A stretch of 49,961 bases of DNA from a bacterium (GTDB lineage: Bacteria > Gemmatimonadota > Gemmatimonadetes > Gemmatimonadales > JACORV01): the NCBI GenBank assembly GCA_021787855.1, contig JAJYLI010000002.1, positions 1-49,961 on the forward strand, read 5' to 3'. The translations under genes were made by a program, and so were the position numbers. This document shows positions 10,796-35,683 of the stretch, one piece after another; the first letter of the stretch is position 1; every line of letters begins with the position of its first letter. The notes under the pieces were generated by a model, which saw only the letters and a program-made list of their open reading frames with translations, was not told where the DNA came from and searched no databases.

Positions 10796-10799
10796 TACA

Positions 10800-18554: not shown

Positions 18555-18590
18555 TGCCGGAACGCGGCCTCGAGCGGCCGGCCGGAGCGG

Positions 18591-20725: not shown

Positions 20726-21121
20726 TCACAGGCAGAGGAGGCGGACCGGGGGCCCGTTGCGCACCAGGTCGAGCGGCCCGACCGTCTCGCCGAGGTCGGG
20801 GACGGTGATGGTCAGCGTCAAGTGGTCGCCGGCGACCTCGCCCACGTAGTGCGCGGGGTGCGGCGCGGGCCCGCCCGCGGGCACGGGACCGGCCTCGATG
20901 AAGTACGTCCCGCCCGCGGCGAACCGGCCCTCGGAGGTCAGCGTCCAGGCCGAGTCAATCTTCCCGCCGGCGCACGGGAGCTGGAGCGCGCCGCCGGAGT
21001 CGGCGAGCACGAGGCTCGCCTGCGTGCCGCCCCAGCTCCCGACGACGACGGGTGCGGGAGCCGTGGCGGACGCGCAACCAGCGACCAGCGCGAGCAGGGG
21101 AAGCCGTGCGAGGCGCATCAT
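20726..21121 (-). CDS. hypothetical lipoprotein
   Basis: 131 aa. Signal plus lipobox LLALVAGC. High GC3. Confidence 0.6.
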   Translation of the reverse strand: MMRLARLPLLALVAGCASATAPAPVVVGSWGGTQASLVLADSGGALQLPCAGGKIDSAWTLTSEGRFAAGGTYFIEAGPVPAGGPAPHPAHYVGEVAGDHLTLTITVPDLGETVGPLDLVRNGPPVRLLCL

Positions 21122-21412
21122 GGAGGTCTACAGCCACAGACCCCGGCAGGTTCCGCCGGGTCACACCGCCGGAGACCGGCCCTCCGCGTCGAGCGAGCGA
21201 TCACGTGCCCTCCGGCACGGGACCGGGTTCGGGGACGACATCCCTCGGCCGCTGAGGTCGCGGCGCCGTTCATGACCGCGAAGACTGCGGCCGGCGGCGA
21301 TCGGCGCAGGCAACACAAACCAGACAAGGGTGGTCGGTATTCGCGCGCGCGGCGGGTGCCCGAGGCGCGGGATATGCGCTACGTTCGGGCGGGATCAGAA
21401 GGCGGGGCGGCC

Positions 21413-21727
21413 ATGCTGCATCTCGCGTTGTGGATCATCCTGGCGGTGTGGGTGGGCATCGCGCTGCTGGTGCTCGTCGCGATCGTGGCGACGATCGGCG
21501 TCGGCACCATCCGCATGCTGCTGGATCGGCGCGGCGTCACGGGCTCGGTGTGGTGTCCGCTGCTCCAGCGAACCATGGAAGTGCTGGGGCCTCCGGCGGC
21601 GTTCGTGGGTGAGCCGAGCGGGTTCGAGGACGTGCGGCGCTGCGAGCGGTTCGGCAAGGGGCGCATCCAGTGCCACAGGTGGTGCGTCCGGACCCAGGAA
21701 CTCGCCGGGGCGGCGCCGACCAACTAG
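21413..21727 (+). CDS. small membrane protein with Cys-rich C-terminal tail
   Basis: ATG 21413 (alternative ATG 21374). One long TM segment (LALWIILAVWVGIALLVLVAIVATIGVG). Tail carries C-x10-C-x3-C (CERFGKGRIQCHRWC). High GC3. Confidence 0.55.
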   Translation: MLHLALWIILAVWVGIALLVLVAIVATIGVGTIRMLLDRRGVTGSVWCPLLQRTMEVLGPPAAFVGEPSGFEDVRRCERFGKGRIQCHRWCVRTQELAGAAPTN

Positions 21728-21738
21728 GCGCCCAGCAC

Positions 21739-22182
21739 TCAGTAGAGCTGCCCGTCGGGCCCCCGCCACCGTCCGCGGCCGAGGCTCTCGAAGACCAGCA
21801 CCCCCACGACGTCCCGCTGGTCTCCCCGCATCACGTGCACCCGGGTGCAATCGTCGAGGGAGCTCCCGGCCGCCGGAAGGCCGGCCGCGTCGTACCGCGG
21901 CGGGCGATAGGCGTGGGCCGACAGCCCACCTCCGTAGCAGGCGTCCCCGAGGAACTGGATCTCGGCGTCGTAGCGCAGCGTGACGAGCGTGGCGCCGAGC
22001 AGGGTCGAGCGCTGGCGTCCCGTCGCGCGGAACCGCACCAGCCGCACGAGACCGTGGCCCTCCTGTCCCACTTCGCGGCCGAGCACGCGCTCGGCGTCTG
22101 CGGCATCCGGATGTGCGCGCGCGCAACCGCTCCCCGCCGCCACGGCGGCGGCGAGCAGCCAGGGAGACAGCCGCGGGCGCAT
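21739..22182 (-). CDS. hypothetical lipoprotein (last gene of the cytochrome c operon)
   Basis: The internal ATG at 22182 overlaps the upstream stop by 1 nt (TGATG). Lipobox AAGSGC. Confidence 0.6.
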   Translation of the reverse strand: MRPRLSPWLLAAAVAAGSGCARAHPDAADAERVLGREVGQEGHGLVRLVRFRATGRQRSTLLGATLVTLRYDAEIQFLGDACYGGGLSAHAYRPPRYDAAGLPAAGSSLDDCTRVHVMRGDQRDVVGVLVFESLGRGRWRGPDGQLY

Positions 22183-22856
22183 CAGCGCCGCACCACCGCG
22201 GAGACGGTCTGCAGGTAGCCGAGGATCTGCGACGCGTCGGCCCGGCTGATCTGCTGCATCTTCATGCGCTGCATGTTCTCCGTCATCCGCAGCACCACCA
22301 CCGGCCAGTCGGGGGGCGAGTGCATCCGGGGATCGGGCAGCACGTGGCAGCGCGAGCACGCGGTGGCGAACAGATCGCGGCCCACGCCGGGCGGCAGCGA
22401 GCCGGCGACCGGCAGCGCGTGGCCTTGCAGGTAGGCGAGGAGCTCGGCCCGTTCCGCCGTGCTCGGAACACGCAGCCCCAGGTCTCCGGCCATCATGTCA
22501 ATCCGTACCCACATGCGGCGGGTCACCGCCGGCCAGTCCATCGCTCCGTGCATCGCCGGCGACGGCAGGGCGTGGCACTGCGTACAGTACTGCTGCAGCA
22601 CCCTGGCTCCGGGCGCAGCCGGATCGGGCAGGCTCTCCGCCGCGATGCCGGGCGGCAGGGCGATGGTGGCCGCTTCGAGCAGCCGCTGCCGTCGCACCGC
22701 CAGCGGGGCGGAAGGGGAAGGGGAGGCGGGGGGTGCGGGCGGGGGGAGCGTAGCGGCCTCGGCCGTGCCGGGCGATGCCGGCGCCCGCCCGGTGGGGGTG
22801 GGTGTTCCGCAGCCAACCAGCACGACGACCGCCGTCAGCAGCGCCCGCACGCTCAT
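22182..22856 (-). CDS. di-heme c-type cytochrome lipoprotein (two atypical repeated heme modules)
   Basis: Lipobox VLVGC followed by a Pro/Ala-rich linker. Two CXXCH motifs (CTQCH, CSRCH), each followed by LP-x-P-x-MH-x3-DWP-x-V-x2-RM. Confidence 0.8.
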   Translation of the reverse strand: MSVRALLTAVVVLVGCGTPTPTGRAPASPGTAEAATLPPPAPPASPSPSAPLAVRRQRLLEAATIALPPGIAAESLPDPAAPGARVLQQYCTQCHALPSPAMHGAMDWPAVTRRMWVRIDMMAGDLGLRVPSTAERAELLAYLQGHALPVAGSLPPGVGRDLFATACSRCHVLPDPRMHSPPDWPVVVLRMTENMQRMKMQQISRADASQILGYLQTVSAVVRR

Positions 22857-22875
22857 GGCATCCTCCCCGCGACGA

Positions 22876-23640
22876 CTATCGGCCGGCGGTCAGGACCGGC
22901 AAGTAGGCGATCACATCCCAGAGCTGCTGGTCCCCGAACAGCCGGCCCCATTCAGGCATGAGACCGCGGTGCCGGGTGGGTCCACGCGTCTTGAGCAAGG
23001 CGAACACCTGCTCGGCCTGCCGCGGCAGGTCGAGCGCCCGCAGGTCCGCAGGCGGGGGCGACTGCTCCGCCGCGAGCGCGCCGTCTCCGGCGCCCCGCAG
23101 GCCGTGGCAGTGCACGCAGTATGTGCCGTAAATGAGACGGCCCGCCGCCGGGTTGCCGCGCGCGCCGGGCTCGGCGAAGGTCGCGATGTAGGCGATGGCG
23201 GCGCGAAGCTCGGGCTCGCGCAGGCCGTGCCAGGCGGCCCCCTCCACCGCGGTCGCACCGGCGGCCGGCGGCGCGCGCCGCACCCGCCGCACCAGGGCCC
23301 CGACCGAACTGCCCCCCACCGCCCGCGCCAGGTCCGGCAGGTCCTCGCGGAAGCCCCGGGCGAGCGGGCCGTCGCCGTGGCCGTACCACCCGTGGCAGCT
23401 CCAGCAGTAGGTGTCGTATACCTCCCGCCCGCGCCGCTCGCCGGCCGTGAGCTGCGGGGCCGCCACCGGCGGCAGGGAGTCCTCGGCCGCAAGCGGCGCC
23501 TCAGGGCGAACGGCCGCCGCGGCGTTCTCCCCGCCGCCCGCGGCCGAAGGCGGTGCCTCGGCGGCACACGCCCCCAACCCCAGCGCGGCGCTCCACAGCG
23601 CGAGGCGCCAGGCCGCCGCGAGTCCGCGCGAGCCGCTCAC
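22876..23640 (-). CDS. di-heme class I c-type cytochrome
   Basis: GTG at 23640 lies 17 nt after the upstream stop (the ORF start at 23721 would overlap). Signal peptide present. Heme motifs CWSCHGWYGHGDG and CVHCHGLRGAGDG. Confidence 0.8.
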   Translation of the reverse strand: MSGSRGLAAAWRLALWSAALGLGACAAEAPPSAAGGGENAAAAVRPEAPLAAEDSLPPVAAPQLTAGERRGREVYDTYCWSCHGWYGHGDGPLARGFREDLPDLARAVGGSSVGALVRRVRRAPPAAGATAVEGAAWHGLREPELRAAIAYIATFAEPGARGNPAAGRLIYGTYCVHCHGLRGAGDGALAAEQSPPPADLRALDLPRQAEQVFALLKTRGPTRHRGLMPEWGRLFGDQQLWDVIAYLPVLTAGR

Positions 23641-23656
23641 GCCGGCGCGCCCCCGC

Positions 23657-23992
23657 TCAGCGATGCAGCGTCTTGATGTAGGCCGCGACGGAGTCCACCT
23701 GCGCCGGCGAGAGCTGTCCACTGAAGGCGGGCATGCTCCGGCGGCCGTGGCGGATCACCTGGCGCACGGCGGAGTCGGTCGTCGCCAGCCGCTTGGCCGG
23801 GTTGGTGAAATCAATCGGCCGCGGGTTCAAGGCCATGGCCATCGGGCCGTTGCCGCGCCCCTCCGCCCCGTGGCACATGGCGCACCGGACGTGGAAGACC
23901 GCCGCCCCGGTGACCTCCTGCGCTCTGACGACGCCCGGGGCTCCGACCGCGAGCACCGCCACGGCGGCGCAGCACCACAGTCCTGTCCGCAT
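23657..23992 (-). CDS. mono-heme class I c-type cytochrome
   Basis: ATG at 23992 preceded by GGGAGGAACAGG. Signal peptide ...VVRAQE. Motifs CAMCHGAEGRGNG and distal MPAF. Confidence 0.85.
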   Translation of the reverse strand: MRTGLWCCAAVAVLAVGAPGVVRAQEVTGAAVFHVRCAMCHGAEGRGNGPMAMALNPRPIDFTNPAKRLATTDSAVRQVIRHGRRSMPAFSGQLSPAQVDSVAAYIKTLHR

Positions 23993-24081
23993 CCTGTTCC
24001 TCCCGCCTTGGGATCGTGAGCCGCCGCGCTCCCCCTCCCCGGGCCCTTCGGCCCGTGGCGCGCCGGTGCTCTTTCCGCTCT

Positions 24082-24098
24082 TGGCAGTAGCCGGGCCA
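24082..24098 (-). promoter_or_regulatory. sigma54 (-24/-12) promoter candidate for the cytochrome c operon
   Basis: The minus strand reads TGGCCCggctaCTGCCA. GG and GC have the canonical 10-nt separation. It lies about 92 nt upstream of ATG 23992. Confidence 0.6.
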
Positions 24099-24191
24099 GC
24101 GCCGCGCGAGCGGCGAAATCCTTCCGCCTCGCGGGCTTCGGGGATCGGGGCCCGCGCCGCTTCCGGCGGGCCGGGTGGGATGCCGCACGCC

Positions 24192-24211
24192 GGCGGGGGA
24201 TTTCCCCCGCC
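24192..24211. promoter_or_regulatory. palindrome GGCGGGGGA-tt-TCCCCCGCC (candidate enhancer/UAS; could also be the terminator hairpin of the regulator gene)
   Basis: Perfect 9-bp inverted arms. It sits 6 nt after the response-regulator stop (24217) and about 105 bp upstream of the -24 element at 24093-24098. Confidence 0.45.
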
Positions 24212-24216
24212 CCGGC

Positions 24217-25611
24217 CTACCCCGCGTCCAGGCCGTACTTCTCGAGCCGGTAGCGCAGCGTGTCCCGGGTCAGGCGCAGCAGCCTCGCCGCGCGCGTCTT
24301 GTTGCCGCGCGCCGCGTCGAGTGCCTGAGCGATGAGCGTCCGCTCGACCTGCTCCAGATCCACGCCCCCGGCGGGCAGCGCGAAGCCGGCACCGTCGCCA
24401 CACGGGGCCGCGGGGTCGGCCGCGCCGAGGAGCCGGACCTCGAGGGGCAGCTGCTCGACGGTGATTTCCCCGCCCTCCTCCAGCAGCAGCAGCCGCTCGA
24501 CCACGTTCCGCAGCTCGCGCGCATTGCCCGGCCAGCGGTACGCCTCCAGGCAGGCGAGCGTCTCGGCCGCCAGGCGCGGCGGCGCGCGGTGGAATTCACG
24601 GCTCAGCTCGTCGAGGAAGTGCAGGGCGAGGGGCGCGACGTCCTCGGGACGCTCCCGGAGCGGCGGCAGGACCTGCGGGAGCACGTTGATCCGGTAGTAC
24701 AGGTCGGGCCGGAAGGCGTTCTGGCGCGCGGCGAGCGCCAGGTCGCGGTTGGTCGCGGCGATGATCCGCACGTCCACCTCGAGATCCGCCAGCCCGCCGA
24801 CGCGCCGGAAGGTGCGCGTCTCCAGGAAGCTCAGCAGCTTGGCCTGGACGCCCAGGGGGATGTCGCCGATCTCGTCCAGCAGGACCGTCCCGCCGTCGGC
24901 CAGCTCCAGGAGACCGCGCTTCTTCTCGCGGGCGTCGGAGAAGGCGCCCCGTTCGTGGCCGAACAGCTCCGACTCGTAGAGGTTCTCGGGGATCGCCGTG
25001 CAGGTCACGCGCAGGAACGGCGCATCGCGCCGCGGGCTGCGGTCGTGGATGGTCCGGGCGATCACGTCCTTGCCGGTGCCGCTCTCCCCCTGCAGCAGCA
25101 CCGTCGCCGGATCGGCGCCGGCGACCTTCTCGACCCAGTCCAACACGGCGCGCATCGCCGCCGACCGCGCGACCACGGTCGCCGACGCCGAGTCCCAGCG
25201 ATGCATCTCGCGCAGGCCGTCCACCTGGTGGCGCAGCCGCCAGGCTTCCAGCGCCTTGTCCAGGATGACGAGCAGCTGCTCGAACGACAGTGGCTTCTGC
25301 AGGAACTGGTAGGCGCCCGCCTTGACCGCGGCGACGGCGGTCTCGATCTCGCCGTAGGCCGTCATGATGATGACCGGCATCTCGCGGTCGAATCGGTGCA
25401 GCTGCTCCAGCGCGTCGAGGCCGTTGGTGTCGGGAAGCCGGAGGTCGAGCAGCACCAGCGAGGGCGCCTCCGCGGCGGCCAGCCGCAGCGCTTCCGCGCG
25501 GGAGCCCGCGACGCACACCTCGAAGCCCGCCCCCCGGAGCTGCTCCCCCAGCCACAGGCGCAGCAGCTCCTCGTCGTCCACGACCAGGATCTTCGCCCGC
25601 CGCATCTTCAC
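24217..25611 (-). CDS. sigma54-dependent response regulator (NtrC family: REC, AAA+, Fis-type HTH)
   Basis: 464 aa. Motifs ILVVDDE...LVLLDLRLPD, Walker A GESGTGKD, GAFSDA (a GAFTGA variant) and LLDEIGD. C-terminal HTH GNKTRAARLLRLTRDTLRYRL. Confidence 0.93.
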   Translation of the reverse strand: MKMRRAKILVVDDEELLRLWLGEQLRGAGFEVCVAGSRAEALRLAAAEAPSLVLLDLRLPDTNGLDALEQLHRFDREMPVIIMTAYGEIETAVAAVKAGAYQFLQKPLSFEQLLVILDKALEAWRLRHQVDGLREMHRWDSASATVVARSAAMRAVLDWVEKVAGADPATVLLQGESGTGKDVIARTIHDRSPRRDAPFLRVTCTAIPENLYESELFGHERGAFSDAREKKRGLLELADGGTVLLDEIGDIPLGVQAKLLSFLETRTFRRVGGLADLEVDVRIIAATNRDLALAARQNAFRPDLYYRINVLPQVLPPLRERPEDVAPLALHFLDELSREFHRAPPRLAAETLACLEAYRWPGNARELRNVVERLLLLEEGGEITVEQLPLEVRLLGAADPAAPCGDGAGFALPAGGVDLEQVERTLIAQALDAARGNKTRAARLLRLTRDTLRYRLEKYGLDAG

Positions 25612-27470
25612 GCCTCACCTCCGTTGCCCCCGGGGGCCGCGGCCACCGGCAGGAACACCACGAACTCCGCCCCGGTCGCGCCCGGCCCGTCGGCCAGCGC
25701 CACGCGCCCGCCGTGCAGGTCCACGATCTGGCGCACGATGGCCAGCCCCAGGCCGGTCCCCGCGTGCTTCGTGGTGTAGAACGGCCGGAAAATCCGCTCG
25801 CGCTCCTCGGCCGCCACGCCCGGCCCCGTGTCGCGCACCGACAGCTCCACGCCGCCCTCCGCGCGCCGGGTCGCGACCACCAGCTCGCCGCCGTTCCGCA
25901 TCGCCTCGACGGCGTTGAGAACCAGGTTGACGACCACCTGGCCCATCTGGTCCGGATCGGCGAGCACCGGTGGCAGCGCGTCCGCCAGCGCGCGCCGCAC
26001 CCGCACCGCCGACCGTTCCGCCCGCGGAGCGGCGAGCGCGAGGGCGCGCTCCACGATGGCGTTGAGGTCGAGGCGCGACGGCCGCGCCGGCGACGGGCGG
26101 GCGTAGCTCAGCAGCCCCTGCACCGCCGCCTCCATCCGCCCGACCCGCTCCCGCAGCTCGTGCAGCAACCGGCGGCCCTCCGCGTCGGCGGCCCCGACGT
26201 GGCTGCCCAGCAGCTCGACGCCGCCGGCGATCCCCAGCAGCGGGGACTTCAGCTCGTGCGCCACCCCCGCCGCCAGCTCGCCGACCGTCGCCAGCTGCTC
26301 CGCCCGGCGCATGTGCTCCCGGTGCAGGTCCCGGAGGCGGGCGGCCGATTCCCGCAGCTGCGCCGCCATGGCGTTGAAGCGCCCGGCCAGGAGCCCCAGC
26401 TCGTCGTGCTGCGCGACCGCCACCGACGCCTCAAGATCGCCGCTCGCGATCCGCTCCGTCGCGCCGACCAGCGCGTAGACCGGCCGCACCAGACCGCGCG
26501 AGACGATCCAGGCCGCCGCGATCACCACCAGCACGAAGACCGCGCCCAGCAGCACCGACAGCCGCCGCAGCCCCCGCAGCCCCCCGACGGCCGCCTGCAC
26601 CGGGATCTCGGCGACAAACCGCAGCGGGTAGCCCGGCACGGCGTGCTCGCCGCCGATGACCTCCGTTCCGTCGCCGCTGCGGTAGCGCACGATCCCCGCC
26701 GCCAGCGCGCGGTACGACGGCAGCGCCTGGCCGTAGTCCACCGGCCCCCCGGGCGACGACACCAGGACCGGCAGGCCCGACGAATCCACGATGGACCCCT
26801 CCACGGCCCCCGCGAGCAGCGCCGGGATCTGGAGCGCGGGGCCGATGGCCGCCGTGGCCACCACGCCCACCACCACCACCGGCCGCGTCGCGTCCGGCGC
26901 GAACAGGTCGGCCGCGAAGAGCAGCCGCGGTGCCGGCGGCGCGCCGACACGCTCCACGGCGAACGCCTGCCCGCCGGCCGCGCGCGCCAGGACCTCGGCG
27001 TCCCGCCACCGCACCCCCGAGGCGAACCGCGGCGAGGCGGCGACGACGATCCGCGCGGGATCCACCAGTTCCAGGGCCGTGAACACCTGAAGCTGCCGGC
27101 GCAGCACTTCCAGCTCCTCGGCGGCGAGCGCGCTGGCCCCGCTCAGCGCCAGCGGCCGAATCGTCGAATCCCGGAGCGCGGACGCGCTCGCGATCAGCAG
27201 CCGGTCGTTCCGCGCCGCCGACGTGAGCCCCAACAGCAATCGCTCGATCTCGTCGCGCACGTGATGCGCCTGCACCGCCGCGAGCGCGTCCAGGTCGCGC
27301 TCCGCCAGCCGGTGGATGATCCGGCTGCTCGCCAGGTACCCGATGGTGTTGGAAGCGAACAGCGGAACGAGCGAGAGCAGCAGCAGCCAGGCCAGCATCC
27401 GCTGGCCCAGCGCGCTCAACAGCGGGTTCTCACGCCACAGCATCCGCCAGCCGGAACCGCCACGCCCCAT
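25608..27470 (-). CDS. sensor histidine kinase (2 TM, roughly 270-aa periplasmic domain, HAMP, HisKA, HATPase_c)
   Basis: H-box AAGVAHELKSPL, N-box VVNLVLNAVEAM, G-boxes RDTGPGV and GTGLGLAIV. The stop overlaps the regulator start. ATG 27470 has GGGAG upstream, 27443 is an alternative, and 27569 is the ORF-caller start. Confidence 0.88.
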   Translation of the reverse strand: MGRGGSGWRMLWRENPLLSALGQRMLAWLLLLSLVPLFASNTIGYLASSRIIHRLAERDLDALAAVQAHHVRDEIERLLLGLTSAARNDRLLIASASALRDSTIRPLALSGASALAAEELEVLRRQLQVFTALELVDPARIVVAASPRFASGVRWRDAEVLARAAGGQAFAVERVGAPPAPRLLFAADLFAPDATRPVVVVGVVATAAIGPALQIPALLAGAVEGSIVDSSGLPVLVSSPGGPVDYGQALPSYRALAAGIVRYRSGDGTEVIGGEHAVPGYPLRFVAEIPVQAAVGGLRGLRRLSVLLGAVFVLVVIAAAWIVSRGLVRPVYALVGATERIASGDLEASVAVAQHDELGLLAGRFNAMAAQLRESAARLRDLHREHMRRAEQLATVGELAAGVAHELKSPLLGIAGGVELLGSHVGAADAEGRRLLHELRERVGRMEAAVQGLLSYARPSPARPSRLDLNAIVERALALAAPRAERSAVRVRRALADALPPVLADPDQMGQVVVNLVLNAVEAMRNGGELVVATRRAEGGVELSVRDTGPGVAAEERERIFRPFYTTKHAGTGLGLAIVRQIVDLHGGRVALADGPGATGAEFVVFLPVAAAPGGNGGEA

Positions 27471-27553
27471 GCCACCGCTCCCTGTGCGGCCGGTGAATTC
27501 CCCCGCATCACATGGGCCATTAAAACAGTCGGGTTTGGATTCCCGCCCACACC

Positions 27554-27567
27554 GGGGGTTTTCCCCC
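27554..27567. promoter_or_regulatory. palindrome GGGGGTTTTCCCCC (candidate enhancer/UAS), with related half-sites at 27495-27506 and 27537-27548
   Basis: Lies about 85-90 bp upstream of the TGGCAC at 27645. Its core is the same as the 24195-24208 palindrome GGGGGATTTCCCCC. Confidence 0.45.
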
Positions 27568-27644
27568 ACCAGGATCCGGCATCACGTCCGGCCTCGGCTC
27601 GCCTAATCACCGACGCCGCAACGGGTTCGTGATGTGCAGAACGC

Positions 27645-27660
27645 TGGCACCCAACCTGCC
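27645..27660 (+). promoter_or_regulatory. sigma54 (-24/-12) promoter candidate for the pentaheme-MopB-FeS-NrfD-tetraheme operon
   Basis: TGGCACccaacCTGCC has a perfect -24 hexamer and canonical GG/GC spacing. It lies 140 nt upstream of GTG 27790. Confidence 0.7.
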
Positions 27661-27789
27661 AAGGGGCCGTCGCGGCGGGCAGATGCGGTGGTGATCCTGG
27701 CCAGGACCGAGCGGACGGGTGGGGCATAGTGCCCGGATGAGGAACCCAGCTCCGCCAAGGCCATCTCCGGACGGACGGAGGGCGGGCGC

Positions 27790-28293
27790 GTGAGGGCGTG
27801 GTTGACGGGTGGCGCGGCGGGAATCGCGATCGGGATCGCCGTGGCGGTCACCGCGGCGCGGTGGGCGGGCGCGGTGACGCAGCCCGTCGCCTTCGACCAC
27901 CGGAAGCACACCCAGGATCTGAAGCTCGACTGCGCGCTGTGTCACCCGAACGTCGCGGTCGGGCAGCATCCCGGGCTGCCGTCGGTGGAGATCTGCGCGA
28001 TGTGCCACCAGACCAGGCTGGGGACGTCCAGCGCGTCGGCACAGGTGACCGGGTACGTCACGAGCGGGCGGCCGCTGGTCTTCCGCAAGCTGTTCGGCCT
28101 GCCGCCGTACGTGTTCTTCACGCACCGCCGGCACGTGGCGATCGCGAAGCTGCCGTGCGCCGACTGCCACGGCGACATCGCCCTGACCACCACGCCGCCG
28201 CGCCGCCCTCTGGTCACGATCACGATGAACTTCTGTCTCCACTGTCACCTCAAGATGCATCAGAGCACCGACTGCATCGCCTGCCACCGCTGA
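27790..28293 (+). CDS. membrane-anchored pentaheme cytochrome c (c3/c7-class; ActA/QrcA-like)
   Basis: GGAGGG lies 8 nt upstream of the GTG. N-terminal TM segment. Five CXXCH motifs (CALCH, CAMCH, CADCH, CLHCH, CIACH) plus distal His motifs (FDHRKH, FTHRRH). Confidence 0.9.
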   Translation: MRAWLTGGAAGIAIGIAVAVTAARWAGAVTQPVAFDHRKHTQDLKLDCALCHPNVAVGQHPGLPSVEICAMCHQTRLGTSSASAQVTGYVTSGRPLVFRKLFGLPPYVFFTHRRHVAIAKLPCADCHGDIALTTTPPRRPLVTITMNFCLHCHLKMHQSTDCIACHR

Positions 28294-28301
28294 GGCCGCG
28301 C

Positions 28302-30713
28302 GTGAGCTTCGATCGTCGCCAGTTCCTGTTCGCCCTCGGCGGCGGCGTCGTAGCCGGGGCCGGTCTGTCCGAGATCGCGGCCGGCCTGGCCGCGCCCACC
28401 GGCCTGCTCGGTCCCGTGCCCGTGCCGCATCCGGCCTGGGCCCCGGGGGTGGAGCAGCGCGTCGCTTCCGCGTGCCTCGTCTGCCCGTCGCGCTGCGGCA
28501 TCCGCGGCCGGATCGTGGACGGGCGCCTGGTCCGGATTGACGGCAACCCGCTGCACCCCCTGAGCCAGGGGGGCCTCTGCCCGCGGGGCGCCGCGGGGGT
28601 CCAGATGCAGTACTCCCCCGGCCGGCTGACGGCGCCGCTGCTGCGGGCGGGGCCGCGGGGCGCGGGCCGGTGGCGCCCGCTGTCGTGGGATGGCGCGGTG
28701 AGCCTGCTGGTGGAGCGGCTGGGGCGGCTGCGCGCGGCGGGCGGGCCGCAGGCGGCGGCGGTGCTCGCCGGCTACTGCGCCGGCTCGATGGAGGACCTGT
28801 GGCGGCAGTTCCTCCGGGCCTACGGCTCGGCGAACTACGCCGCGGACGCGTACGCGGACGGCGGCGACGCGGTCATGGCCGCCATGCACGGCGTCGCGCG
28901 GCGCCCGGCCTACGACCTCGACCGCGCCACGCTGGTCCTGTCGTTCGGCGCGCCGCTGTTCGAGGCGTGGTGGTCCCCGGTGCAGGCGGCGGTCGCGTAC
29001 GGACGCACCGAGCGCATCCGGGAGGGGGCACCGCGCCCGCGCTTCGTCCAGGTGGATACCCGGTTCTCCCGCACCGCGGCGCGGTCGTCCGAGTGGATCG
29101 GCGTGCGGCCGCGGACCCACGCGATCCTGGCGCTGGGCATCGCCTACGTGCTGATCCGCGAGGCGCTGGTGGACGCCGATTTCCTCGCGGCGCACGTGTC
29201 CGGCTACGAGGACTGGAGCGACGCCGCGGGCGGTCACGAGGGCTACCGCACGGCCGTGCTGCGCCGCTATCGCACCGAGGAAGTCTCCGCCGCCACCGGC
29301 GTCAGCGTGGAGCGGATCGTCGGGCTGGCGCGGGCCTTCGCGGCGGGCCCGCGGTCGCTGGCCATCTGCGGCCCCGATGTCACGCTGGCCCCCGACGGCC
29401 TGCTCGCGGGGCTGGCCGTGCACAGTCTCAATGTGCTGGTGGGGAGCGTCAGCCGCCCGGGCGGCGTGCTGGTGGGCGAGGATCCGCCGCTCGCGCCGAT
29501 CGCCGCGGTCACGCTGGACGACGTCGCGCGGCGCGGCCTGGCCCACGGGCCCCTGGCGGCGGGCGCGCCGTTCGGGGAGGGAGGGGGGGAAACCGGGGCC
29601 GAGCGAGGCGCCGCGCTCGCCGAGGCCATCGCCGCGCGGAGCCCGGGGAGCGTACAGGCGCTGCTGCTCTACTACGCCAACCCGCTCGCCTCCGCCACCC
29701 GCCCGGAGCGCTGGGCCGCCGCGCTCGCGCGCGTGCCGCTGGTGGTGAGCTTCTCGCCGTTCCACGACGAGACCACGCGCCAGGCGGACCTGATCATCCC
29801 GGACCTCCTGCCGTACGAGCGCTGGCAGGACGCGCCGGCGCCGGCCTCGTACCCCTACCCGGCGTGGGCCGTCGTGCGCCCGCTGGTGGCGCCGCCCACC
29901 GGCGCGCTCGGCACCGCGGACGTGCTGCTCGCGGTGGCCAACCGCCTGGGCGGCACCGTGGCCGCGAGCCTGCCTCATCCCGACATGCACGCGCTGCTCA
30001 AGGCCCGCGCCCGCGGCCTGTTCGCGGCGCGGCGCGGGATGCCGTTCGGCGACGCCTTCGCCACCGAGTACCAGCGCCAGATGGAGGAGCGCGGCTGGTG
30101 GCTGGGCGGCGGCGCGCCGGCCGGGGGCGGGGGCGGCTTCGACGCCTTCTGGACCCGCGTGGTCGAAAGCGGCGGCTGGGCGGACCCGTTCTACGACTAC
30201 ACGGACGGCGGCCGGATGCGCCGCACGCCGAGCGGCAGGATCGAGCTGATGCCCGCCGACGTGCGGCGCCGCCTCCAGCCGGACGCCGGCCCGTACGACT
30301 TCATCGCGCGCGCCGAGCCGCCCGCGCCGGCCGGATACCCGCTGCGCCTTCAGCCGTACCGCGTCTCCACGCTCGCGTCGGGCACCATCGGGCTCGAGCC
30401 GTGGCTCGCCGAGCGGCCGGCGCTGTTCCCCGACGTGTACTGGGTACCGTGGGTGGAGGTGAACCCCGCCACGGCCCGCTCCCTCGGCCTCGAGGACGGC
30501 GCGCCGGCCTGGGTGACTTCGGCCCACGGCCGCTACCGGGCCCGGGTCAAGCACTTCCCCGGCGCCGCCCGCGACGTGGTGAACGCGCCGTACGGCCTGC
30601 GGCACCCGGACGGCGAGCTGGCCAATCCGCTCCAGCTCCTCGACGGGGCGGCCGATCCGCTCACGGGGCTGTCCTCGTGGGCCACCACGTTCGTCCACCT
30701 CGAGCGGGCCTGA
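28302..30713 (+). CDS. Tat-exported molybdopterin-oxidoreductase-family (MopB) large subunit
   Basis: GTG at 28302. Tat motif DRRQFLF. FS0 motif C-x2-C-x3-C-x27-C (CLVCPSRCG...GGLCPRG). About 800 aa. The upstream part of ORF 27798..30713 overlaps the pentaheme gene out of frame. Confidence 0.88.
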   Translation: MSFDRRQFLFALGGGVVAGAGLSEIAAGLAAPTGLLGPVPVPHPAWAPGVEQRVASACLVCPSRCGIRGRIVDGRLVRIDGNPLHPLSQGGLCPRGAAGVQMQYSPGRLTAPLLRAGPRGAGRWRPLSWDGAVSLLVERLGRLRAAGGPQAAAVLAGYCAGSMEDLWRQFLRAYGSANYAADAYADGGDAVMAAMHGVARRPAYDLDRATLVLSFGAPLFEAWWSPVQAAVAYGRTERIREGAPRPRFVQVDTRFSRTAARSSEWIGVRPRTHAILALGIAYVLIREALVDADFLAAHVSGYEDWSDAAGGHEGYRTAVLRRYRTEEVSAATGVSVERIVGLARAFAAGPRSLAICGPDVTLAPDGLLAGLAVHSLNVLVGSVSRPGGVLVGEDPPLAPIAAVTLDDVARRGLAHGPLAAGAPFGEGGGETGAERGAALAEAIAARSPGSVQALLLYYANPLASATRPERWAAALARVPLVVSFSPFHDETTRQADLIIPDLLPYERWQDAPAPASYPYPAWAVVRPLVAPPTGALGTADVLLAVANRLGGTVAASLPHPDMHALLKARARGLFAARRGMPFGDAFATEYQRQMEERGWWLGGGAPAGGGGGFDAFWTRVVESGGWADPFYDYTDGGRMRRTPSGRIELMPADVRRRLQPDAGPYDFIARAEPPAPAGYPLRLQPYRVSTLASGTIGLEPWLAERPALFPDVYWVPWVEVNPATARSLGLEDGAPAWVTSAHGRYRARVKHFPGAARDVVNAPYGLRHPDGELANPLQLLDGAADPLTGLSSWATTFVHLERA

Positions 30714-30734
30714 GCCCGGGGAGGAAAGCCGCCG

Positions 30735-31418
30735 ATGCCACGCTGGGGGATGGTGATTGACCTCGACCGCTGCACCGGCTGCGCCGCGTGCGAGGTCGCC
30801 TGCAAGAGCGAGAACAACATCGCCACGGTGCGGCCCGATCAGGCCGACATGGGGCGCGCCATGAGCTGGATGAAGGTGGAGACGAAGATCGAGGGCGACT
30901 TCCCCGACACCCGCCTCAGCTTCGCGCCCCGGCCGTGCATGCAGTGCGACAACCCCCCGTGCGTGAAGGTCTGCCCCGTGTCGGCGACCTACCTGAGCCC
31001 GGAGGGCATCGTCGGCCAGATCTACCCGCGCTGCATCGGCTGCCGGTACTGCGCCAACGCCTGCCCCTACACCGCCAAGTACTTCAACTGGTTCGCCCCC
31101 GCGTGGCCCGACAGCGAGCGCGCGCACCTGGACCCCGATGTCTCCGTCCGGCCCAGGGGTGTCATGGAGAAGTGCACGTTCTGCGACCACCGGCTCCAGC
31201 AGGCGAAGGAGAACGCGCGCGCCGCGGGCCGGCCCCTGCGCGAATCGGACTTCCAGCCGGCCTGCGCGGACGCGTGCCCCACGCGCGCCATCGTGTTCGG
31301 GGACCTGGACAACCCGGCGCACCGGGTGAGCACGCTCAAGAACGACCCGCGCGCGACGCGCCTCATGGAATCGCTGGGTACCGAGCCCAAGGTCTACTAC
31401 CTCACCCAGAAGGCCTGA
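30735..31418 (+). CDS. 4Fe-4S ferredoxin-type subunit (NrfC/PsrB/QrcC/ActB2-like)
   Basis: GGAGG upstream. Motifs MVIDLDRCTGCAACEVACKSEN, CMQCDNPPCVKVCP, CIGCRYCANACP, CTFCDHR and CADACP. Confidence 0.92.
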   Translation: MPRWGMVIDLDRCTGCAACEVACKSENNIATVRPDQADMGRAMSWMKVETKIEGDFPDTRLSFAPRPCMQCDNPPCVKVCPVSATYLSPEGIVGQIYPRCIGCRYCANACPYTAKYFNWFAPAWPDSERAHLDPDVSVRPRGVMEKCTFCDHRLQQAKENARAAGRPLRESDFQPACADACPTRAIVFGDLDNPAHRVSTLKNDPRATRLMESLGTEPKVYYLTQKA

Positions 31419-31419
31419 C

Positions 31420-32775
31420 GTGGACGACGCCGAAACCAAGCTCCGCGCGCTCCCCGAGGACGCCCGCACCCTGCTGCGGCCGCTGATCCACACGACCTGG
31501 CGGTTCTATCTCGCCGCCAGCCTGCTGGGCGCCGTGACCCTGTGGGGCATCGGCGCCTACGTCCTGCAGTTCCGCCACGGCCTGGGCGAGACCGGCCTCA
31601 ACCGGCCGGAGTACTGGGGCATCTACATCATTGATTTCGTCTTCTTCATCGGCATCAGCCACGCCGGGACGCTGATCAGCGCCATCCTCAGGATCAGCAA
31701 GGCGGAGTGGCGCCGCGCGATCACCCGCTCCGCCGAGTTCATCACCGTGCTGGTGATCGGCTTCGGGGCCATCCAGCCCATCGTGGACCTCGGGCGCCCC
31801 GACCGGCTGCTGAACATCTTCGCCCACGCGCACCTGCGCTCGCCGCTGCTGTGGGACGTCATGAGCATCTGCTTCTACCTGACCGCCAGCACGATCTACC
31901 TCTACCTGCCGATGCTGCCCGACCTGGCCATCATCCGGGACGCCGAGATCAAGGCGCCGCGGTTCTACCGCTTCCTGGCGGCCGGCTACCGCGACACGCC
32001 GGAGCAGCGGCGGCGGCTGGAGAAGGTGATCGGCGTCCTGGCCATCGTGGTGATCCCCATCGCCGTCTCGGTGCACACGGTGATCGGGTGGATCTTCGCG
32101 ATGACCCTGCGACCGATGTGGCACTCGACCATCTTCGGCCCGTACTTCGTGGTCGGCGCCATCTACTCCGGCATCGCGGCGCTGCTGGTGGCCATGGTCA
32201 TCCTGCGCCGCGTCTATCACCTCGAGCGCTACTTCAAGCCGGTGCACTTCGACTACATGGGCCGGCTGCTGCTGCTGTTCAGCCTGCTGTGGCTGTACTT
32301 CACGTTCGCCGAGTACCTCACGGCCTTCTACGGCAGCGAGCCCGCCGAGATGCGCACGTTCTGGGCGCGCATCTCGGGGCCGTTCGCCGTGCCGTTCTGG
32401 CTGATGGCCTTCTGCTGCTTCGTCCTGCCCTTCGCCCTGATGTGCCGGAAGGCGATGCGCGCGCCCACCGGCACCCTGATCGCGGGGATCGCGGTGGTGA
32501 TCGGCATGTGGCTGGAGCGGTTCAACATCGTGGTGCCGACCTCGGTGAACCCGCGGTTCGACCTCGAGCCGGTGGCCCACTACTTCCCCTCGGGGGTGGA
32601 GCTGTCCATCCTGGCCGCCACGTTCAGCGGGTTCATCCTGCTGTACATGGTCGCCACGAAGTTCTTCCCGATCATCTCCATCTGGGAGATCCGCGAGGGG
32701 CGGGAGGTGTCGGTGCGCGAGGTGGCCGAGCGCGTGGCCGACTACCTGCCGACCGAGTCCGCGGAGGCGGCCTGA
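31420..32775 (+). CDS. NrfD/PsrC-family quinone-interacting membrane subunit (long ActC/QrcD-like form)
   Basis: 451 aa and polytopic. The motif WGIYIIDFVFFIGISHAGTLISAILRISKAEWRR is typical of the NrfD family. Confidence 0.9.
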   Translation: MDDAETKLRALPEDARTLLRPLIHTTWRFYLAASLLGAVTLWGIGAYVLQFRHGLGETGLNRPEYWGIYIIDFVFFIGISHAGTLISAILRISKAEWRRAITRSAEFITVLVIGFGAIQPIVDLGRPDRLLNIFAHAHLRSPLLWDVMSICFYLTASTIYLYLPMLPDLAIIRDAEIKAPRFYRFLAAGYRDTPEQRRRLEKVIGVLAIVVIPIAVSVHTVIGWIFAMTLRPMWHSTIFGPYFVVGAIYSGIAALLVAMVILRRVYHLERYFKPVHFDYMGRLLLLFSLLWLYFTFAEYLTAFYGSEPAEMRTFWARISGPFAVPFWLMAFCCFVLPFALMCRKAMRAPTGTLIAGIAVVIGMWLERFNIVVPTSVNPRFDLEPVAHYFPSGVELSILAATFSGFILLYMVATKFFPIISIWEIREGREVSVREVAERVADYLPTESAEAA

Positions 32776-33959
32776 TGCCCGGCCGCGCGGGGCTCCTCGC
32801 GCTGCTGTGCGCCGCGGCCCTGGCGCCCGTCCCGGCGCGGGGCCAGGTCGCCGGCGCGAGCGGCGACCCGGCCGCCGGACGCGGCATCTTCGTCGAGCGC
32901 GGCTGCGTCCGCTGCCACGCCATCTGGGGCAACGGCGGCACCCTCGGGCCCGACCTCGCGACCGCCGGCTCCGGCGCGAGCATGCAGCAGCTCGCCGGGC
33001 TGCTGTGGAATCACACGCCGCGCATGATGGTCGCGATGCGCCAGCGCGGCTACGCGTGGCCGGCGCTCTCCGAGCCGGAGCTGGCCGACGTCATCAGCTA
33101 CATCTACTACGTGAAGCTGTTCGGCGAGCCGGGCGACCCGGACGCGGGCCGGCAGTGGTTCCGCGACAAGCGCTGCGTCGAGTGCCACCAGGTGGGCGAC
33201 GCCGGCGGGCGCGTCGGCGCGCCGCTGGACGGTTACGCGCGGTACGTGGCGCCGATCATGCTGGCCCAGGGGATGTGGGACCACGGGCCGGCGATGCAGG
33301 CCGCGCAACAGGCCCGGGGGGTCCCCATCCCGGCGTTCGAGGGCCGGGAGATGGCCGACATCCAGGCCTACATCCGCCGCGCGTCCGCGCAAAGCCCGCG
33401 CCAGGCGGTGCTGCTGGAGCCGCCGCAGCCGGAGCGCGGCCGGCGCCTGTTCGCCGCCAAGGGGTGCCCGCGGTGCCACGGCCCCGAGGGGCGCGGCACC
33501 GCCGCGGGCCCCGACCTCCGGGCCGCCACCCTGAACCTGAGCGTCTCCCAGATCGCCGGCGTGCTGTGGAACCACTCGTTCCAGATGGTGGCGCGCATGC
33601 GCCAGCACGGCGTCGGATTCCCCCAGTTCGCGGGAAACGACATGGCCGATCTCATCGCGTACCTCTACTTCCTGCGGTTCAACGACCCGGACGGCGACCG
33701 CGCCAACGGCGCGCGGATCTTCCGGGACAAGGGGTGCGCCGGATGCCACCGTCCGGCGCACGGCCCGCCCGTCGGCCCGGACCTGGCGCGCTCCGCGGCC
33801 GTCACGACGCCGCTGGGGCTCGTGGCCGCGATGTGGAACCACGCCCCGGCCATGTTCTCGGCGATGCAGGGCCACGCCGTCGCGTGGCCGCGGTTCGAGG
33901 GGAACGAGATGCGCGACCTGGCCTTCTACCTGCGGAGCCTCGCCCGCCCGGCGCGCTAG
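32775..33959 (+). CDS. periplasmic tetraheme c-type cytochrome built from four tandem modules of about 90-97 aa
   Basis: The ATG overlaps the NrfD stop (TGATG). Signal peptide present. CXXCH at residues 44, 134, 231 and 321 (CVRCH, CVECH, CPRCH, CAGCH), each followed by GPDL...(L/M)W(N/D)H...M...EM(A/R)D. Confidence 0.88.
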   Translation: MPGRAGLLALLCAAALAPVPARGQVAGASGDPAAGRGIFVERGCVRCHAIWGNGGTLGPDLATAGSGASMQQLAGLLWNHTPRMMVAMRQRGYAWPALSEPELADVISYIYYVKLFGEPGDPDAGRQWFRDKRCVECHQVGDAGGRVGAPLDGYARYVAPIMLAQGMWDHGPAMQAAQQARGVPIPAFEGREMADIQAYIRRASAQSPRQAVLLEPPQPERGRRLFAAKGCPRCHGPEGRGTAAGPDLRAATLNLSVSQIAGVLWNHSFQMVARMRQHGVGFPQFAGNDMADLIAYLYFLRFNDPDGDRANGARIFRDKGCAGCHRPAHGPPVGPDLARSAAVTTPLGLVAAMWNHAPAMFSAMQGHAVAWPRFEGNEMRDLAFYLRSLARPAR

Positions 33960-33993
33960 CGCCCCGCGCCCGCCGCGGCGAGGGGCGGGGCGC
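33959..33993. terminator. GC-rich hairpin between convergent genes
   Basis: GCGCCCCGC (33959-33967) pairs with GCGGGGCGC (33985-33993), leaving a 17-nt GC-rich loop. There is no U-tract. Confidence 0.35.
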
Positions 33994-33994
33994 G

Positions 33995-34791
33995 CTACAG
34001 GTCGCGCCGGGCGAAAGCGGCGAAGGCGACGAGCAGCGCCGCGGCGGCCACCGCGCCGAACACCGCGGCGTCGCGCCCGTCGAGCCCGGCGCGGATCACC
34101 TGCTGCGGATCGTAATACCGGAACAGCGAGACGGGACGGAGCGAGGCGATCGCGGGCCACACCCGCGCCGCGTAGTCCAGCACGTAGGAGCCGGCCATCA
34201 GTCCGGCCGTCCACGCGATCGCGTGCCCGGCTTCGCGGGCGAGGGCGGAGGCGGCGATCGCGACCGCGCCCCAGGCCGCGAACAGCAGCCACATGGCGCC
34301 CGCGACGGGGAGATAGGCCAGCGCGGACGCGCCGGCCACCGGGCCGAAGAGCAGCCCCACGAGGGTGCCGGCCCACGCCGCCAGGCCGAGGACCGCCAGG
34401 CCCCCCAGGAGCGCCACCAGGGCCGCCGTCACCTGCGCCGGCCGCGAGACCGGCCGCGCGGCGATCAGGTCCATGGTGCCCCGCCCGATCTCGCCCGCCA
34501 GCGCCGCGCACGGCACGCGCACCGCCCAAACGGCCATCATCAGCAGCACGAAGGGGTGGGTGTACCCGATGCCCAGGATCCCGCGCGCGCTCACGCTGCC
34601 CGCCAGGTCCGGGTTCACCAGGGCGAGCAGCTCGGGCGGCGCCGCCGCCAGAGCGGTCGCGAGGAAGTGCGACACAACGGGCTGCCGCGCCACGAACGTC
34701 ATGACCCACTCGAACAGGGCCAGCCCCAGCGCCAGCGGCACCAGCGGCACGCGATGCACTCGCGTGTGGTGTCCGAGCAGCACGCGCACGC

Positions 34792-34795: not shown

Positions 34796-35683
<888 letters not shown>

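Follow-up and report, generated by a model that had tools for sequence, protein, structure and literature searches.

The window analysed here is a stretch of 49,961 nucleotides (ca. 74% G+C) from contig JAJYLI010000002.1, and its encoded proteins match Gemmatimonadota. It contains a histidine kinase and a sigma-54-dependent response regulator located between two operons, one on the plus strand coding for a multi-subunit redox complex and one on the minus strand coding for c-type cytochromes and a lipoprotein. The plus-strand operon encodes a quinone-coupled, periplasm-facing respiratory complex that plainly belongs to the alternative complex III (ACIII)/Qrc ("MFIc") superfamily, of which it represents a distinct and widespread form. 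A first-pass annotation of this DNA had listed these genes together with 14 CXXCH heme-binding motifs, two -24/-12 promoter candidates and two G5-W4-C5 palindromes, and all of them were recovered at the same places by our gene calls and pattern searches. Its title, which spoke of two multiheme/MopB operons, has to be corrected, as a MopB gene is found in the plus-strand operon only. The genes of the system are the following:

27790-28293, plus strand: cytA, membrane-anchored pentaheme cytochrome of the c7/c3 type, ActA/QrcA-like, 167 aa, 5 CXXCH
28302-30713, plus strand: MopB-like subunit, 803 aa, with the twin-arginine motif SFDRRQFLF and Pfam matches to Molybdop_Fe4S4 (PF04879), Molybdopterin (PF00384) and Molydop_binding (PF01568)
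30735-31418, plus strand: four-cluster iron-sulfur (FeS) subunit, ActB2/QrcC-like, 227 aa, lacking a signal peptide, 16 Cys in four ferredoxin-type groups
31420-32775, plus strand: NrfD-family membrane subunit of the ActC clade, 10 helices, 451 aa, full-length ActC match
32775-33959, plus strand: cyt4, periplasmic tetraheme class I cytochrome c, 394 aa, Pfam Cytochrom_C in 4 stretches, 4 CXXCH
25608-27470, minus strand: sensor histidine kinase, 620 aa, with HAMP, HisKA and HATPase_c domains
24217-25611, minus strand: NtrC-type sigma-54 enhancer-binding protein (EBP) and response regulator, 464 aa, with REC, Sigma54_activat (209 bits), AAA_lid_14 and HTH_8 domains
23657-23992, minus strand: c1, monoheme class I cytochrome c, 111 aa, Pfam Cytochrome_CBB3 and Cytochrom_C
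22876-23640, minus strand: c2, diheme class I cytochrome c, 254 aa, two Cytochrome_CBB3 stretches
22182-22856, minus strand: c2L, lipoprotein cytochrome with two hemes, 224 aa, its two CXXCH lying in a motif that is repeated internally
21739-22182, minus strand: small lipoprotein, 147 aa, final gene of the minus-strand operon, no Pfam match

The 14 CXXCH motifs are distributed over cytA (5), cyt4 (4), c1 (1), c2 (2) and c2L (2).

The gene-neighbourhood survey proposed in the first-pass annotation revealed a five-gene core that is conserved over three phyla. In a scan of one genome per species, relatives were detected in 413 genomes. The best 80 loci were fetched, their open reading frames were surveyed by phmmer, and gene order was counted where a locus extends far enough. 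The order cytA-MopB-FeS-NrfD-cyt4 is kept in the fetched Gemmatimonadota loci that reach far enough, with L060 showing no separate cytA match, and this five-gene arrangement is also present in one Acidobacteriota and one Zixibacteria locus. For the large subunit, more than 120 database clusters were found at 57-77% identity, and all organism-named ones belong to Gemmatimonadota. An exhaustive search of 1.8 billion representatives returned 808 clusters at E ≤ 1e-30, in which members at 36-48% identity were named as Acidobacteriota and Zixibacteria. In one long-read contig (L006, 13065-15366) the NrfD gene, scoring 723 bits with phmmer, is fragmented by apparent frameshifts that are probably a sequencing artefact. 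Five loci (L020, L021, L028, L055 and L080) have a canonical ACIII cluster directly adjoining the variant one (e.g. L028, 1099-9084). These canonical clusters encode ActA and a fused ActB of ca. 1,000 aa, together with ActC in all but L021, whose contig ends early; an ActF-like second NrfD gene was detected by phmmer only in the canonical clusters of L020, L028 and L055. The ActB proteins of these neighbours lack the cysteines of the [4Fe-4S] cluster FS0 and have the motif CxGTxYC, and their ActC proteins have His139 and Asp253. Because both types occur side by side in five genomes, the complex in the window is a paralogue of ACIII and not merely the ACIII of its organism.

The membrane-side subunits were placed using PDB sequence searches and NCBIfam models. 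NrfD can be aligned over its full length with the ActC proteins of Roseiflexus, Flavobacterium and Rhodothermus at 213-220 bits (6lod_C at 220 bits, 6btm_C and 6f0k_C), compared with 37 bits for the QrcD model (cut-off 570). The best PDB match of the FeS subunit is the C-terminal domain of ActB (6f0k_B, 214 bits), and the QrcC model scores 314 bits against a cut-off of 400. In case of cytA, the best PDB matches are ActA chains of ACIII (8k9e_A at 74 bits, 6btm_A, 6lod_A and 6f0k_A), with QrcA at 79 bits (cut-off 180). Exactly five CXXCH motifs are present in 73/73 cytA orthologues and the distal His residues are conserved.

For a closer look at the quinone site, 71 NrfD orthologues were compared with the ActC residue numbering and residue lists of Calisto and Pereira (PMC8076601, Table 2). 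The ActC quinol pocket consists of His139, Ser164, Asp169 and Asp253, all conserved to more than 95% among 521 ActC proteins (PMC8076601), and a role in quinol binding and deprotonation has been proposed for His139, Asp169 and Asp253 of ACIII (PMC5928083). Each of three residues is replaced in all 71 orthologues, His139 by Asp, Asp253 by Ile and Tyr323 by Thr, while Ser164 and Asp169 are retained. Acidobacteriota and Zixibacteria proteins likewise carry Asp at position 139 and Ile or Val at position 253; all three ActC residues, including Tyr323, are retained in four canonical Gemmatimonadota ActC proteins from the neighbouring clusters. The proton half-channels are largely kept. The window NrfD retains 17 of the 19 listed channel residues, and 16 of these 19 N-side and P-side residues are retained in essentially all orthologues, Ser180 being Cys in 47/71. 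Counted over the 19 residues compared beyond positions 139, 253 and 323, 17 are invariant, with the same Ser180 exchange and Glu338 lost in one protein. This conservation suggests proton coupling.

All 16 cysteines of the FeS subunit are conserved among orthologues. Its group III motif reads CIGCRYC, with four cysteines as in ArrB, whereas all four solved ActB proteins (6f0k_B, 6lod_B, 8k9e_B and 6btm_B) have CxGTxYC. The B2 domain of ActB holds three [4Fe-4S] clusters besides its membrane-proximal [3Fe-4S] cluster. The residue at the second position of group III sets the type of the proximal cluster, as in DmsB and NarH. Judging by the motif, the membrane-proximal cluster is probably of the [4Fe-4S] type, unlike the [3Fe-4S] cluster of ACIII.

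The public annotation of the large subunit is the generic "molybdopterin-dependent oxidoreductase", and the question arises whether it binds molybdenum. We consider it likely, from the alignments described below, that a molybdenum centre is missing. The best solved sequence relatives of the subunit are ArrA and PsrA, with ActB N-terminal domains reaching just 30-62 bits, and the NCBIfam scores are 283 for QrcB (cut-off 440), 206 for PhsA and 137 for ArrA. In the HMMER alignments, the ligand cysteine of ArrA falls in an insertion that is missing from the query and that of PsrA is opposite Gly187. Taken together with the orthologue alignments, no Cys, selenocysteine or conserved Ser is found at the molybdenum-ligand position, and no in-frame UGA is present in the reading frame. 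The sole conserved cysteines among 77 orthologues are C58, C61, C65 and C93, which belong to FS0, and Arg95 following them is invariant too. At the ligand position, the motif Tyr184-x-Asp186-Gly187 is invariant within Gemmatimonadota and lost in the Zixibacteria orthologue. In a set of ca. 140 distant, full-length homologues, FS0 reads CCCC in 123 whereas the loop at the ligand position is hypervariable; the MAFFT alignment of this loop is uncertain residue by residue and was used solely with regard to the missing conserved cysteine. The canonical ActB1 of L028 lacks the FS0 cysteines, and both QrcB and ActB1 have been reported to contain no cofactor at all (PMC13059093, PMC5928083).

Sequence conservation differs strongly between the subunits. 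Mean identities to the Gemmatimonadota orthologues are 75% for NrfD, 75% for the FeS subunit and 59% for the MopB-like subunit, and identities to the Acidobacteriota locus L089 are 71%, 63% and 35%, respectively. Across phyla, 35% for the MopB-like subunit compares with 57-71% for the FeS and NrfD subunits. Lower conservation of the large subunit is the pattern of a scaffold and Tat-export partner, as in ACIII, rather than that of a catalytic molybdenum subunit. The Pfam Molydop_binding match was rejected as evidence for a pterin, since the cofactor-less ActB1 of L028 shows the same domain IV motifs. Naming the distant MopB homologues by NCBIfam was likewise abandoned, as QrcB, PhsA and ArrA score alike at 260-350 bits, all under their cut-offs. 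Foldseek with the predicted model of the subunit returned the generic MopB fold with ArrA on top (TM-score 0.73), a result that is silent on the cofactor.

Downstream of NrfD, cyt4 combines four CXXCH motifs with conserved Met residues, and M84, M174, M271 and M360 were taken as axial ligands. A conserved Met for each heme points to acceptors of higher potential. A PDB search with cyt4 yielded neither ActE nor any other close relative. The gene follows NrfD in the loci that reach that far, and a second cyt4 paralogue comes next in most Gemmatimonadota loci. Cytochromes of the minus-strand operon recur in relatives as well: in ca. 22 related loci a c1 homologue immediately precedes cytA on its strand, c2 homologues are found upstream of cytA in two loci (L032 and L081), and c2L homologues follow the EBP gene in 8 loci and lie within or beside the cluster in ca. 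13 more. Recurrence in the main operon or behind the regulator gene of relatives argues for a functional link between the two operons of the window. The arrangement as a separate minus-strand operon is specific to this organism, and the 147-aa lipoprotein was seen solely in this organism's contigs (L003 and L004). By comparison of gene orders, the window appears to have gathered the recurrent partners c1, c2 and c2L into a separate operon with its own promoter and palindrome copy. It is possible that c2L serves as a co-sensor or as an electron carrier. In L002 (7631-9277) and L005 (6850-9297), a large cytochrome (548 and 815 aa, respectively), for which Pfam gives weak class I and MtrC-like hints, is inserted between the regulator genes and cytA.

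The regulatory elements identified at the locus are the following (the palindromic sites are given as unstranded):

27645-27660, plus strand: predicted sigma-54 -24/-12 promoter of the plus-strand operon, TGGCACCCAACCTGCC, by pattern match
24098-24083, minus strand: sigma-54 -24/-12 candidate of the minus-strand operon, TGGCCCGGCTACTGCC, by pattern match
27554-27567, unstranded: candidate proximal activating palindrome of the plus-strand operon, GGGGGTTTTCCCCC, starting 91 bp upstream of the -24 element
24208-24195, unstranded: candidate distal activating palindrome of the minus-strand operon, GGGGGAAATCCCCC, starting 110 bp upstream of the -24 element
27531-27544, unstranded: degenerate distal site of the plus-strand operon, GGGTTTGGATTCCC, at -114, a weak and tentative match at the distal position of relatives
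24173-24186, unstranded: degenerate proximal site of the minus-strand operon, GCGGCATCCCACCC, resembling the proximal sites of L049 and L072

Within the 50-kb window, TGGCNCNNNNNCTGCC matches these two promoters only (0.55 expected; two matches were reached in 8/100 shuffles), and GGGNNWWWWNNCCC matches only the two strong palindromes (0.10 expected). The promoters are alike at 16/23 positions including flanks (CGCTGGC.C.....CTGCCAAG), and no sigma-70-like promoter was found in 21500-34200. Among relatives, 19 kinase-bearing loci have a -24/-12 site of the form TGGCAC-N5-CTGCY or TGGTAC-N5-YTGCT upstream of the first plus-strand gene. Palindromes following the consensus GGGKNAWWTNCCCC are located at -111±3 and -89±2 in 18 of these loci, compared with 6.6% of random 80-nt control windows. 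The palindrome of the minus-strand operon, GGGGGAAATCCCCC, fits the same consensus; the idea that it is a mere terminator hairpin, as its position 9 nt past the EBP stop codon might suggest, was dismissed in light of this family consensus, its conserved distance and the lack of a T-run after it. The features of an NtrC-type regulon, i.e. an EBP with REC, AAA+ (with a GAFTGA-type loop) and HTH domains, -24/-12 promoters and upstream sites at ca. 80-150 bp, are all present in the sequence. The earlier proposal of a single enhancer-dependent regulon is thus supported by the promoter and palindrome geometry of the 18 loci, that is, by sequence conservation.

The kinase and sigma-54 activator genes are divergent from the operon in ca. 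30 related loci, often with a small receiver gene ahead of them. The sigma-54 contact loop of the EBP is GAFSDA, and its orthologues have GAFTDA (18), GAYTDA (4), GAFSDA (3) or GAFTGA (2). A kinase, an EBP with 42% identity and a -24/-12 site accompany the Acidobacteriota cluster too, yet its upstream motif is a different one. In L001, L008, L035, L062, L067 and others, a second sigma-54-like site, GGTACCGTTCTTGC, lies on the opposite strand and is directed towards the receiver-kinase-activator genes, with a further palindrome-like site (e.g. TGGGTCATTTCC) just beyond it. The two sites together suggest autoregulation in these relatives, unlike the window, where no sigma-54 site facing the kinase operon was evident.

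As for the signal, the kinase had been described as having a periplasmic domain of ca. 270 aa; the domain stands, although its length between the hydrophobic segments 17-35 and 298-316 is closer to 260 aa. The domain alone gave no Pfam match but is homologous over its full length to the dCache_1 domains of relatives (BLAST, 29-65% identity, E 1e-15 to 1e-97). In the Acidobacteriota locus L089, the kinase (3874-5745) has one CXXCH motif at residue 124 and another at residue 160, both in the periplasmic domain enclosed by its two membrane segments, and is a putative heme c sensor kinase. The Gemmatimonadota kinase domain has no Cys, and the c2L gene is often co-transcribed with the kinase. The heme motifs of the L089 kinase and this frequent co-transcription suggest that the system may respond to the redox state of the periplasm or to a heme ligand.

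The rest of the window consists of housekeeping genes unrelated to the cluster. About 2 kb past the minus-strand operon, a di-heme cytochrome c peroxidase (CCP_MauG, 183 bits) is encoded at 18591-19628 on the minus strand, separated from the operon by an esterase and small unknown genes, and in L040 a homologue lies immediately upstream of c1-cytA. This peroxidase is a possible electron acceptor of the system. Downstream of the plus-strand operon, an ABC transporter (33995-35722, minus strand) appears disrupted, with an ATPase N-terminal part, a 121-aa ATPase C-terminal piece (34792-35157) and an ABC2 membrane part in different frames (117 and 266 aa according to the gene caller), reflecting either a frameshift, a pseudogene or an assembly error. 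At the window edge (47761-49959, minus strand), a molybdenum-binding subunit of the xanthine dehydrogenase/aldehyde oxidase type (MoCoBD_1/2) is encoded; it is unrelated to the complex and indicates that the organism makes molybdenum cofactor. Among relatives, a cbb3 oxidase gene (FixO) neighbours the cluster in L088 and Rieske/cytochrome b genes do so in L087. L087 (identical to L011) has the cluster inside a respiratory island (6303-22358). Upstream, this island encodes one multiheme cytochrome, one FeS protein, an NrfD of 397 aa and a protein of 182 aa; downstream, two Rieske/cytochrome b pairs accompany multiheme cytochromes of 427 and 522 aa.

By analogy with the solved ACIII structures, we lean slightly towards a menaquinol:cytochrome c oxidoreductase that would feed dedicated periplasmic cytochromes under sigma-54 control. 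Gemmatimonas uses menaquinone-9 (MK-9), and menaquinone is assumed to be the quinone here. Menaquinol would be oxidized in the ActC-type subunit, with its Asp/Ile pocket and largely intact half-channels, and electrons would then enter the four-Cys membrane-proximal cluster, where the path would branch. One branch would lead through the five bis-His hemes of cytA and the four His/Met hemes of cyt4 to c1, c2 and c2L, from which terminal enzymes would be supplied, for example cytochrome oxidases or the cytochrome c peroxidase encoded nearby. FixO and the Rieske/cytochrome b genes of L088 and L087, as well as the peroxidase genes of the window and L040, fit such a supply line to high-potential acceptors. 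The other branch would run along [4Fe-4S] clusters to FS0 in the MopB-like subunit, and its retained FS0 would make this second FeS wire, a dead end in ACIII, one cluster longer here. The Tat signal of the MopB-like subunit probably also serves to co-export the FeS subunit, which has no signal of its own. Expression would depend on sigma-54, with the dCache-type kinase phosphorylating the NtrC-type activator and the latter binding the GGGG-N6-CCCC palindromes that precede the -24/-12 promoter of each operon by ca. 90 and ca. 110 bp.

The direction of electron flow is the weakest step of this proposal. That substrate and direction cannot be read from the sequence had been stated in the first-pass annotation, and this caution is still correct; flow from quinol to cytochrome c is modestly favoured by us, and the opposite direction appears unlikely. 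Several points weigh against the proposed oxidoreductase. Qrc, the other close relative, runs the opposite way, from cytochrome c to menaquinone. The loss of His139 and Asp253 together with the four-Cys cluster implies that the quinone chemistry is not that of ACIII, so that neither the direction nor the energetics of ACIII can be assumed. Two-component/sigma-54 control is not expected for a housekeeping complex III, and about half of the related loci have no adjacent regulator. As to the large subunit, the AlphaFold2 model is mediocre (pLDDT 67.6, from a 23-sequence alignment) and low at FS0 and the ligand loop, and a molybdenum or tungsten centre with an unusual ligand is possible given the invariant FS0 cysteines, Arg95 and Tyr184-x-Asp186-Gly187.

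If the complex worked in the Qrc direction, which we regard as unlikely, reduced periplasmic c cytochromes would pass electrons via hemes and FeS clusters to menaquinone with proton uptake from the cytoplasm, in an electrogenic redox loop or, with high-potential donors, in reverse flow driven by the proton-motive force. QrcA, QrcB and QrcC being the best NCBIfam models of three subunits speaks for this, as does the exchange of His139 for Asp and the loss of the quinol-deprotonating Asp253, by which the pocket is not the quinol-oxidizing one of ACIII. Further, N-side channel residues are all conserved apart from Ser180 (Cys in 47/71), and it is by the N-side pathway that Qrc obtains the protons for reducing quinone (PMC6303296, PMC13059093). 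However, the membrane subunit falls in the ActC clade and not with QrcD (220 versus 37 bits), His/Met class I partners usually have too high a potential to reduce menaquinone without energy input, and the neighbourhood encodes neither a hydrogenase nor a formate dehydrogenase nor a type I cytochrome c3. Gemmatimonadota are mostly aerobic or denitrifying organotrophs, a lifestyle that also argues against Qrc-type electron flow. Less probable still is a working molybdenum- or tungsten-bis(pyranopterin guanine dinucleotide) enzyme of the Psr/Phs/Arr lineage with an unusual ligand such as Asp186, acting on a small periplasmic substrate that the dCache kinase would sense and sharing electrons between the quinone pool and the cytochromes. 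Such an enzyme would account for FS0 cysteines and an Arg95 that are invariant here whereas QrcB and ActB1 carry no cofactors, for the Tyr184, Asp186 and Gly187 residues fixed at the ligand position within Gemmatimonadota, for ArrA and PsrA as top sequence and fold matches and for a linked sensor domain of the ligand-binding type. It is at odds with a ligand position that has no Cys, selenocysteine or conserved Ser, with the absence of the Y-x-D-G motif in Zixibacteria and the hypervariable loop of the ca. 140 homologues, and with the conservation pattern across phyla (35% for MopB, 57-71% for FeS and NrfD). Every curated molybdenum-enzyme model stays far under its cut-off, and the Molydop_binding match, although over threshold, does not discriminate, as cofactor-less ActB1 also retains the domain IV motifs. 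Ten-helix NrfD proteins have, moreover, been reported to pair with non-standard "catalytic" subunits (PMC6303296), which again speaks against a molybdenum enzyme.

A role as inner-membrane quinol dehydrogenase of an extracellular or metal-reducing conduit seems quite improbable to us. It has been suggested for a similar cluster by the genome paper on candidate phylum MBNT15, in which an "ACIII-like" cluster with a four-heme ActE-like protein was linked to iron reduction (PMC9386147), and it gains from the 427- and 522-aa multiheme cytochromes and Rieske/cytochrome b pairs around the L087 cluster and from the 548- and 815-aa cytochromes ahead of cytA in L002 and L005. On the other hand, the conserved partners are His/Met class I cytochromes and not bis-His multiheme wires, no outer-membrane porin-cytochrome genes were seen in the window, and the big multiheme neighbours are not conserved across loci. 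Hardly credible, finally, is a canonical ACIII or a Psr/Phs polysulfide/thiosulfate reductase in unusual gene order, even though the cytochrome-MopB-FeS-NrfD order, the strong ActC and ActB2 similarity and the generic public label point that way. The ActD, ActE and ActF genes are missing and the NrfD and cyt4 genes abut, a fused-ActB ACIII adjoins the cluster in the five genomes named above, the [3Fe-4S] motif is lacking, and the Psr, Phs, Arr and Ttr models score far under their cut-offs with no molybdenum-ligand cysteine present. Membership in canonical ACIII, Qrc or Psr/Phs/Arr was ruled out based on model scores, signature residues, the proximal motif and the missing ligand cysteine.

Going beyond the menaquinol:cytochrome c oxidoreductase, we can offer a more far-reaching and only tentative picture, whose parts are meant jointly. 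The complex might represent a third branch of the ACIII/Qrc superfamily that has so far gone unrecognised, and in many Gemmatimonadota, Acidobacteriota and Zixibacteria it might supply the "missing" quinol:cytochrome c oxidoreductase. It might be intermediate between Psr/Arr molybdoenzymes and cofactor-less ACIII/Qrc, having lost the molybdenum site while keeping FS0 and an all-[4Fe-4S] wire, with a second FeS branch that is functional and ends in the MopB-like subunit. Its expression might be set by a periplasmic redox or ligand sensor, which would be a fused diheme c kinase in Acidobacteriota and be split into a dCache kinase and c2L in Gemmatimonadota.

Gemmatimonadota are among the commonest soil phyla, and the link between their quinone pool and cytochrome c is not explained by counts of bc1 complex and ACIII. 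A survey of Gemmatimonadota genomes found bc1 in 23% and ACIII in less than 10%, and unrecognised complex III modules were suspected (PMC9426454). Whatever its role, a complex with matches in 413 species genomes in one scan, which recurs in two more phyla, is a common piece of environmental respiratory chains. Its three fixed differences from ACIII, namely the Asp/Ile pocket, the four-Cys cluster and FS0, sit at the quinone end or in the unexplained FeS branch and bear on open questions about ACIII, i.e. how quinol oxidation is coupled to protons and what purpose the [4Fe-4S] wire has. Further, with the conserved sigma-54 promoter and its GGGG-N6-CCCC palindromes, a regulator, its putative binding site and a small regulon are at hand, which makes the inducing signal testable. 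In a literature search, no study of the signatures, distribution, regulation or biochemistry of this complex was found.

The complex had initially been described as an uncharacterised relative of Qrc and split-ActB ACIII lacking ActD, ActE and ActF. This agrees with our results, as no subunit reaches the NCBIfam cut-off for Qrc, Psr/Phs, Arr or Ttr and as defining ACIII features are absent, with a single NrfD gene, a changed quinone pocket and a four-Cys proximal motif. The ACIII references used were the ActABCDEF complexes of Rhodothermus marinus (6F0K), Flavobacterium johnsoniae (6BTM) and Roseiflexus castenholzii (6LOD). With these, the complex shares a pentaheme ActA-like cytochrome with an N-terminal anchor, MopB-like and four-cluster FeS modules (separate proteins here), a 10-helix ActC-type subunit with largely kept proton half-channels, and a periplasmic orientation with a Tat signal on the large subunit. 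In contrast to ACIII, the plus-strand operon has no ActD, monoheme ActE or ActF, its one NrfD gene abuts cyt4 at 32775, and a tetraheme class I cytochrome stands where ActE would be. The quinol-site residues His139/Asp253 are Asp/Ile, the proximal motif has four cysteines instead of CxGTxYC (cluster types being deduced from motifs), and FS0 cysteines are kept that ActB1 has lost. Two-component/sigma-54 control also sets the complex apart from ACIII, with which it coexists in some genomes.

The gene order cytochrome, split MopB-like subunit, FeS subunit and NrfD is that of QrcABCD from sulfate-reducing Desulfobacterota, the large subunit probably lacks molybdenum in both, and three subunits have QrcA, QrcB and QrcC as their best-scoring NCBIfam models. 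All scores are nevertheless below cut-off (79/180, 283/440 and 314/400, with QrcD at 37/570), and the membrane subunit belongs to the ActC clade. Five hemes are present where the Qrc cytochrome has six, FS0 cysteines are found whereas QrcB is free of redox cofactors, and four cysteines make up the proximal motif whereas QrcC has a [3Fe-4S] cluster (PMC13059093, PMC6303296 for the Qrc side). Further differences are the additional tetraheme subunit, host phyla that are not sulfate reducers and a neighbourhood with neither hydrogenase nor type I cytochrome c3.

A four-heme ActE-like protein next to ActABC, away from oxidase genes, has also been described for cluster 4 of MBNT15, a likeness by description that is based on genome annotation. 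That cluster was reported to include ActD, unlike the present one, and its signature residues, regulation and distribution were not analysed (PMC9386147). With PsrABC, PhsABC and ArrABC, the complex has in common the MopB fold, with ArrA on top by sequence and by Foldseek (TM-score 0.73), the FS0 motif CxxCxxxC...CPRG, Tat export and four [4Fe-4S]-type Cys groups in the FeS subunit, the proximal one included. It differs from them in having no molybdenum-ligand Cys and an unconserved ligand loop, a 10-helix ActC-type NrfD where they have the 8-helix PsrC type, two cytochrome subunits in the operon and scores far under the cut-offs of the curated models. As judged by profile, the complex is a mosaic of an ActC-like membrane part and a Qrc-/Psr-like large subunit.

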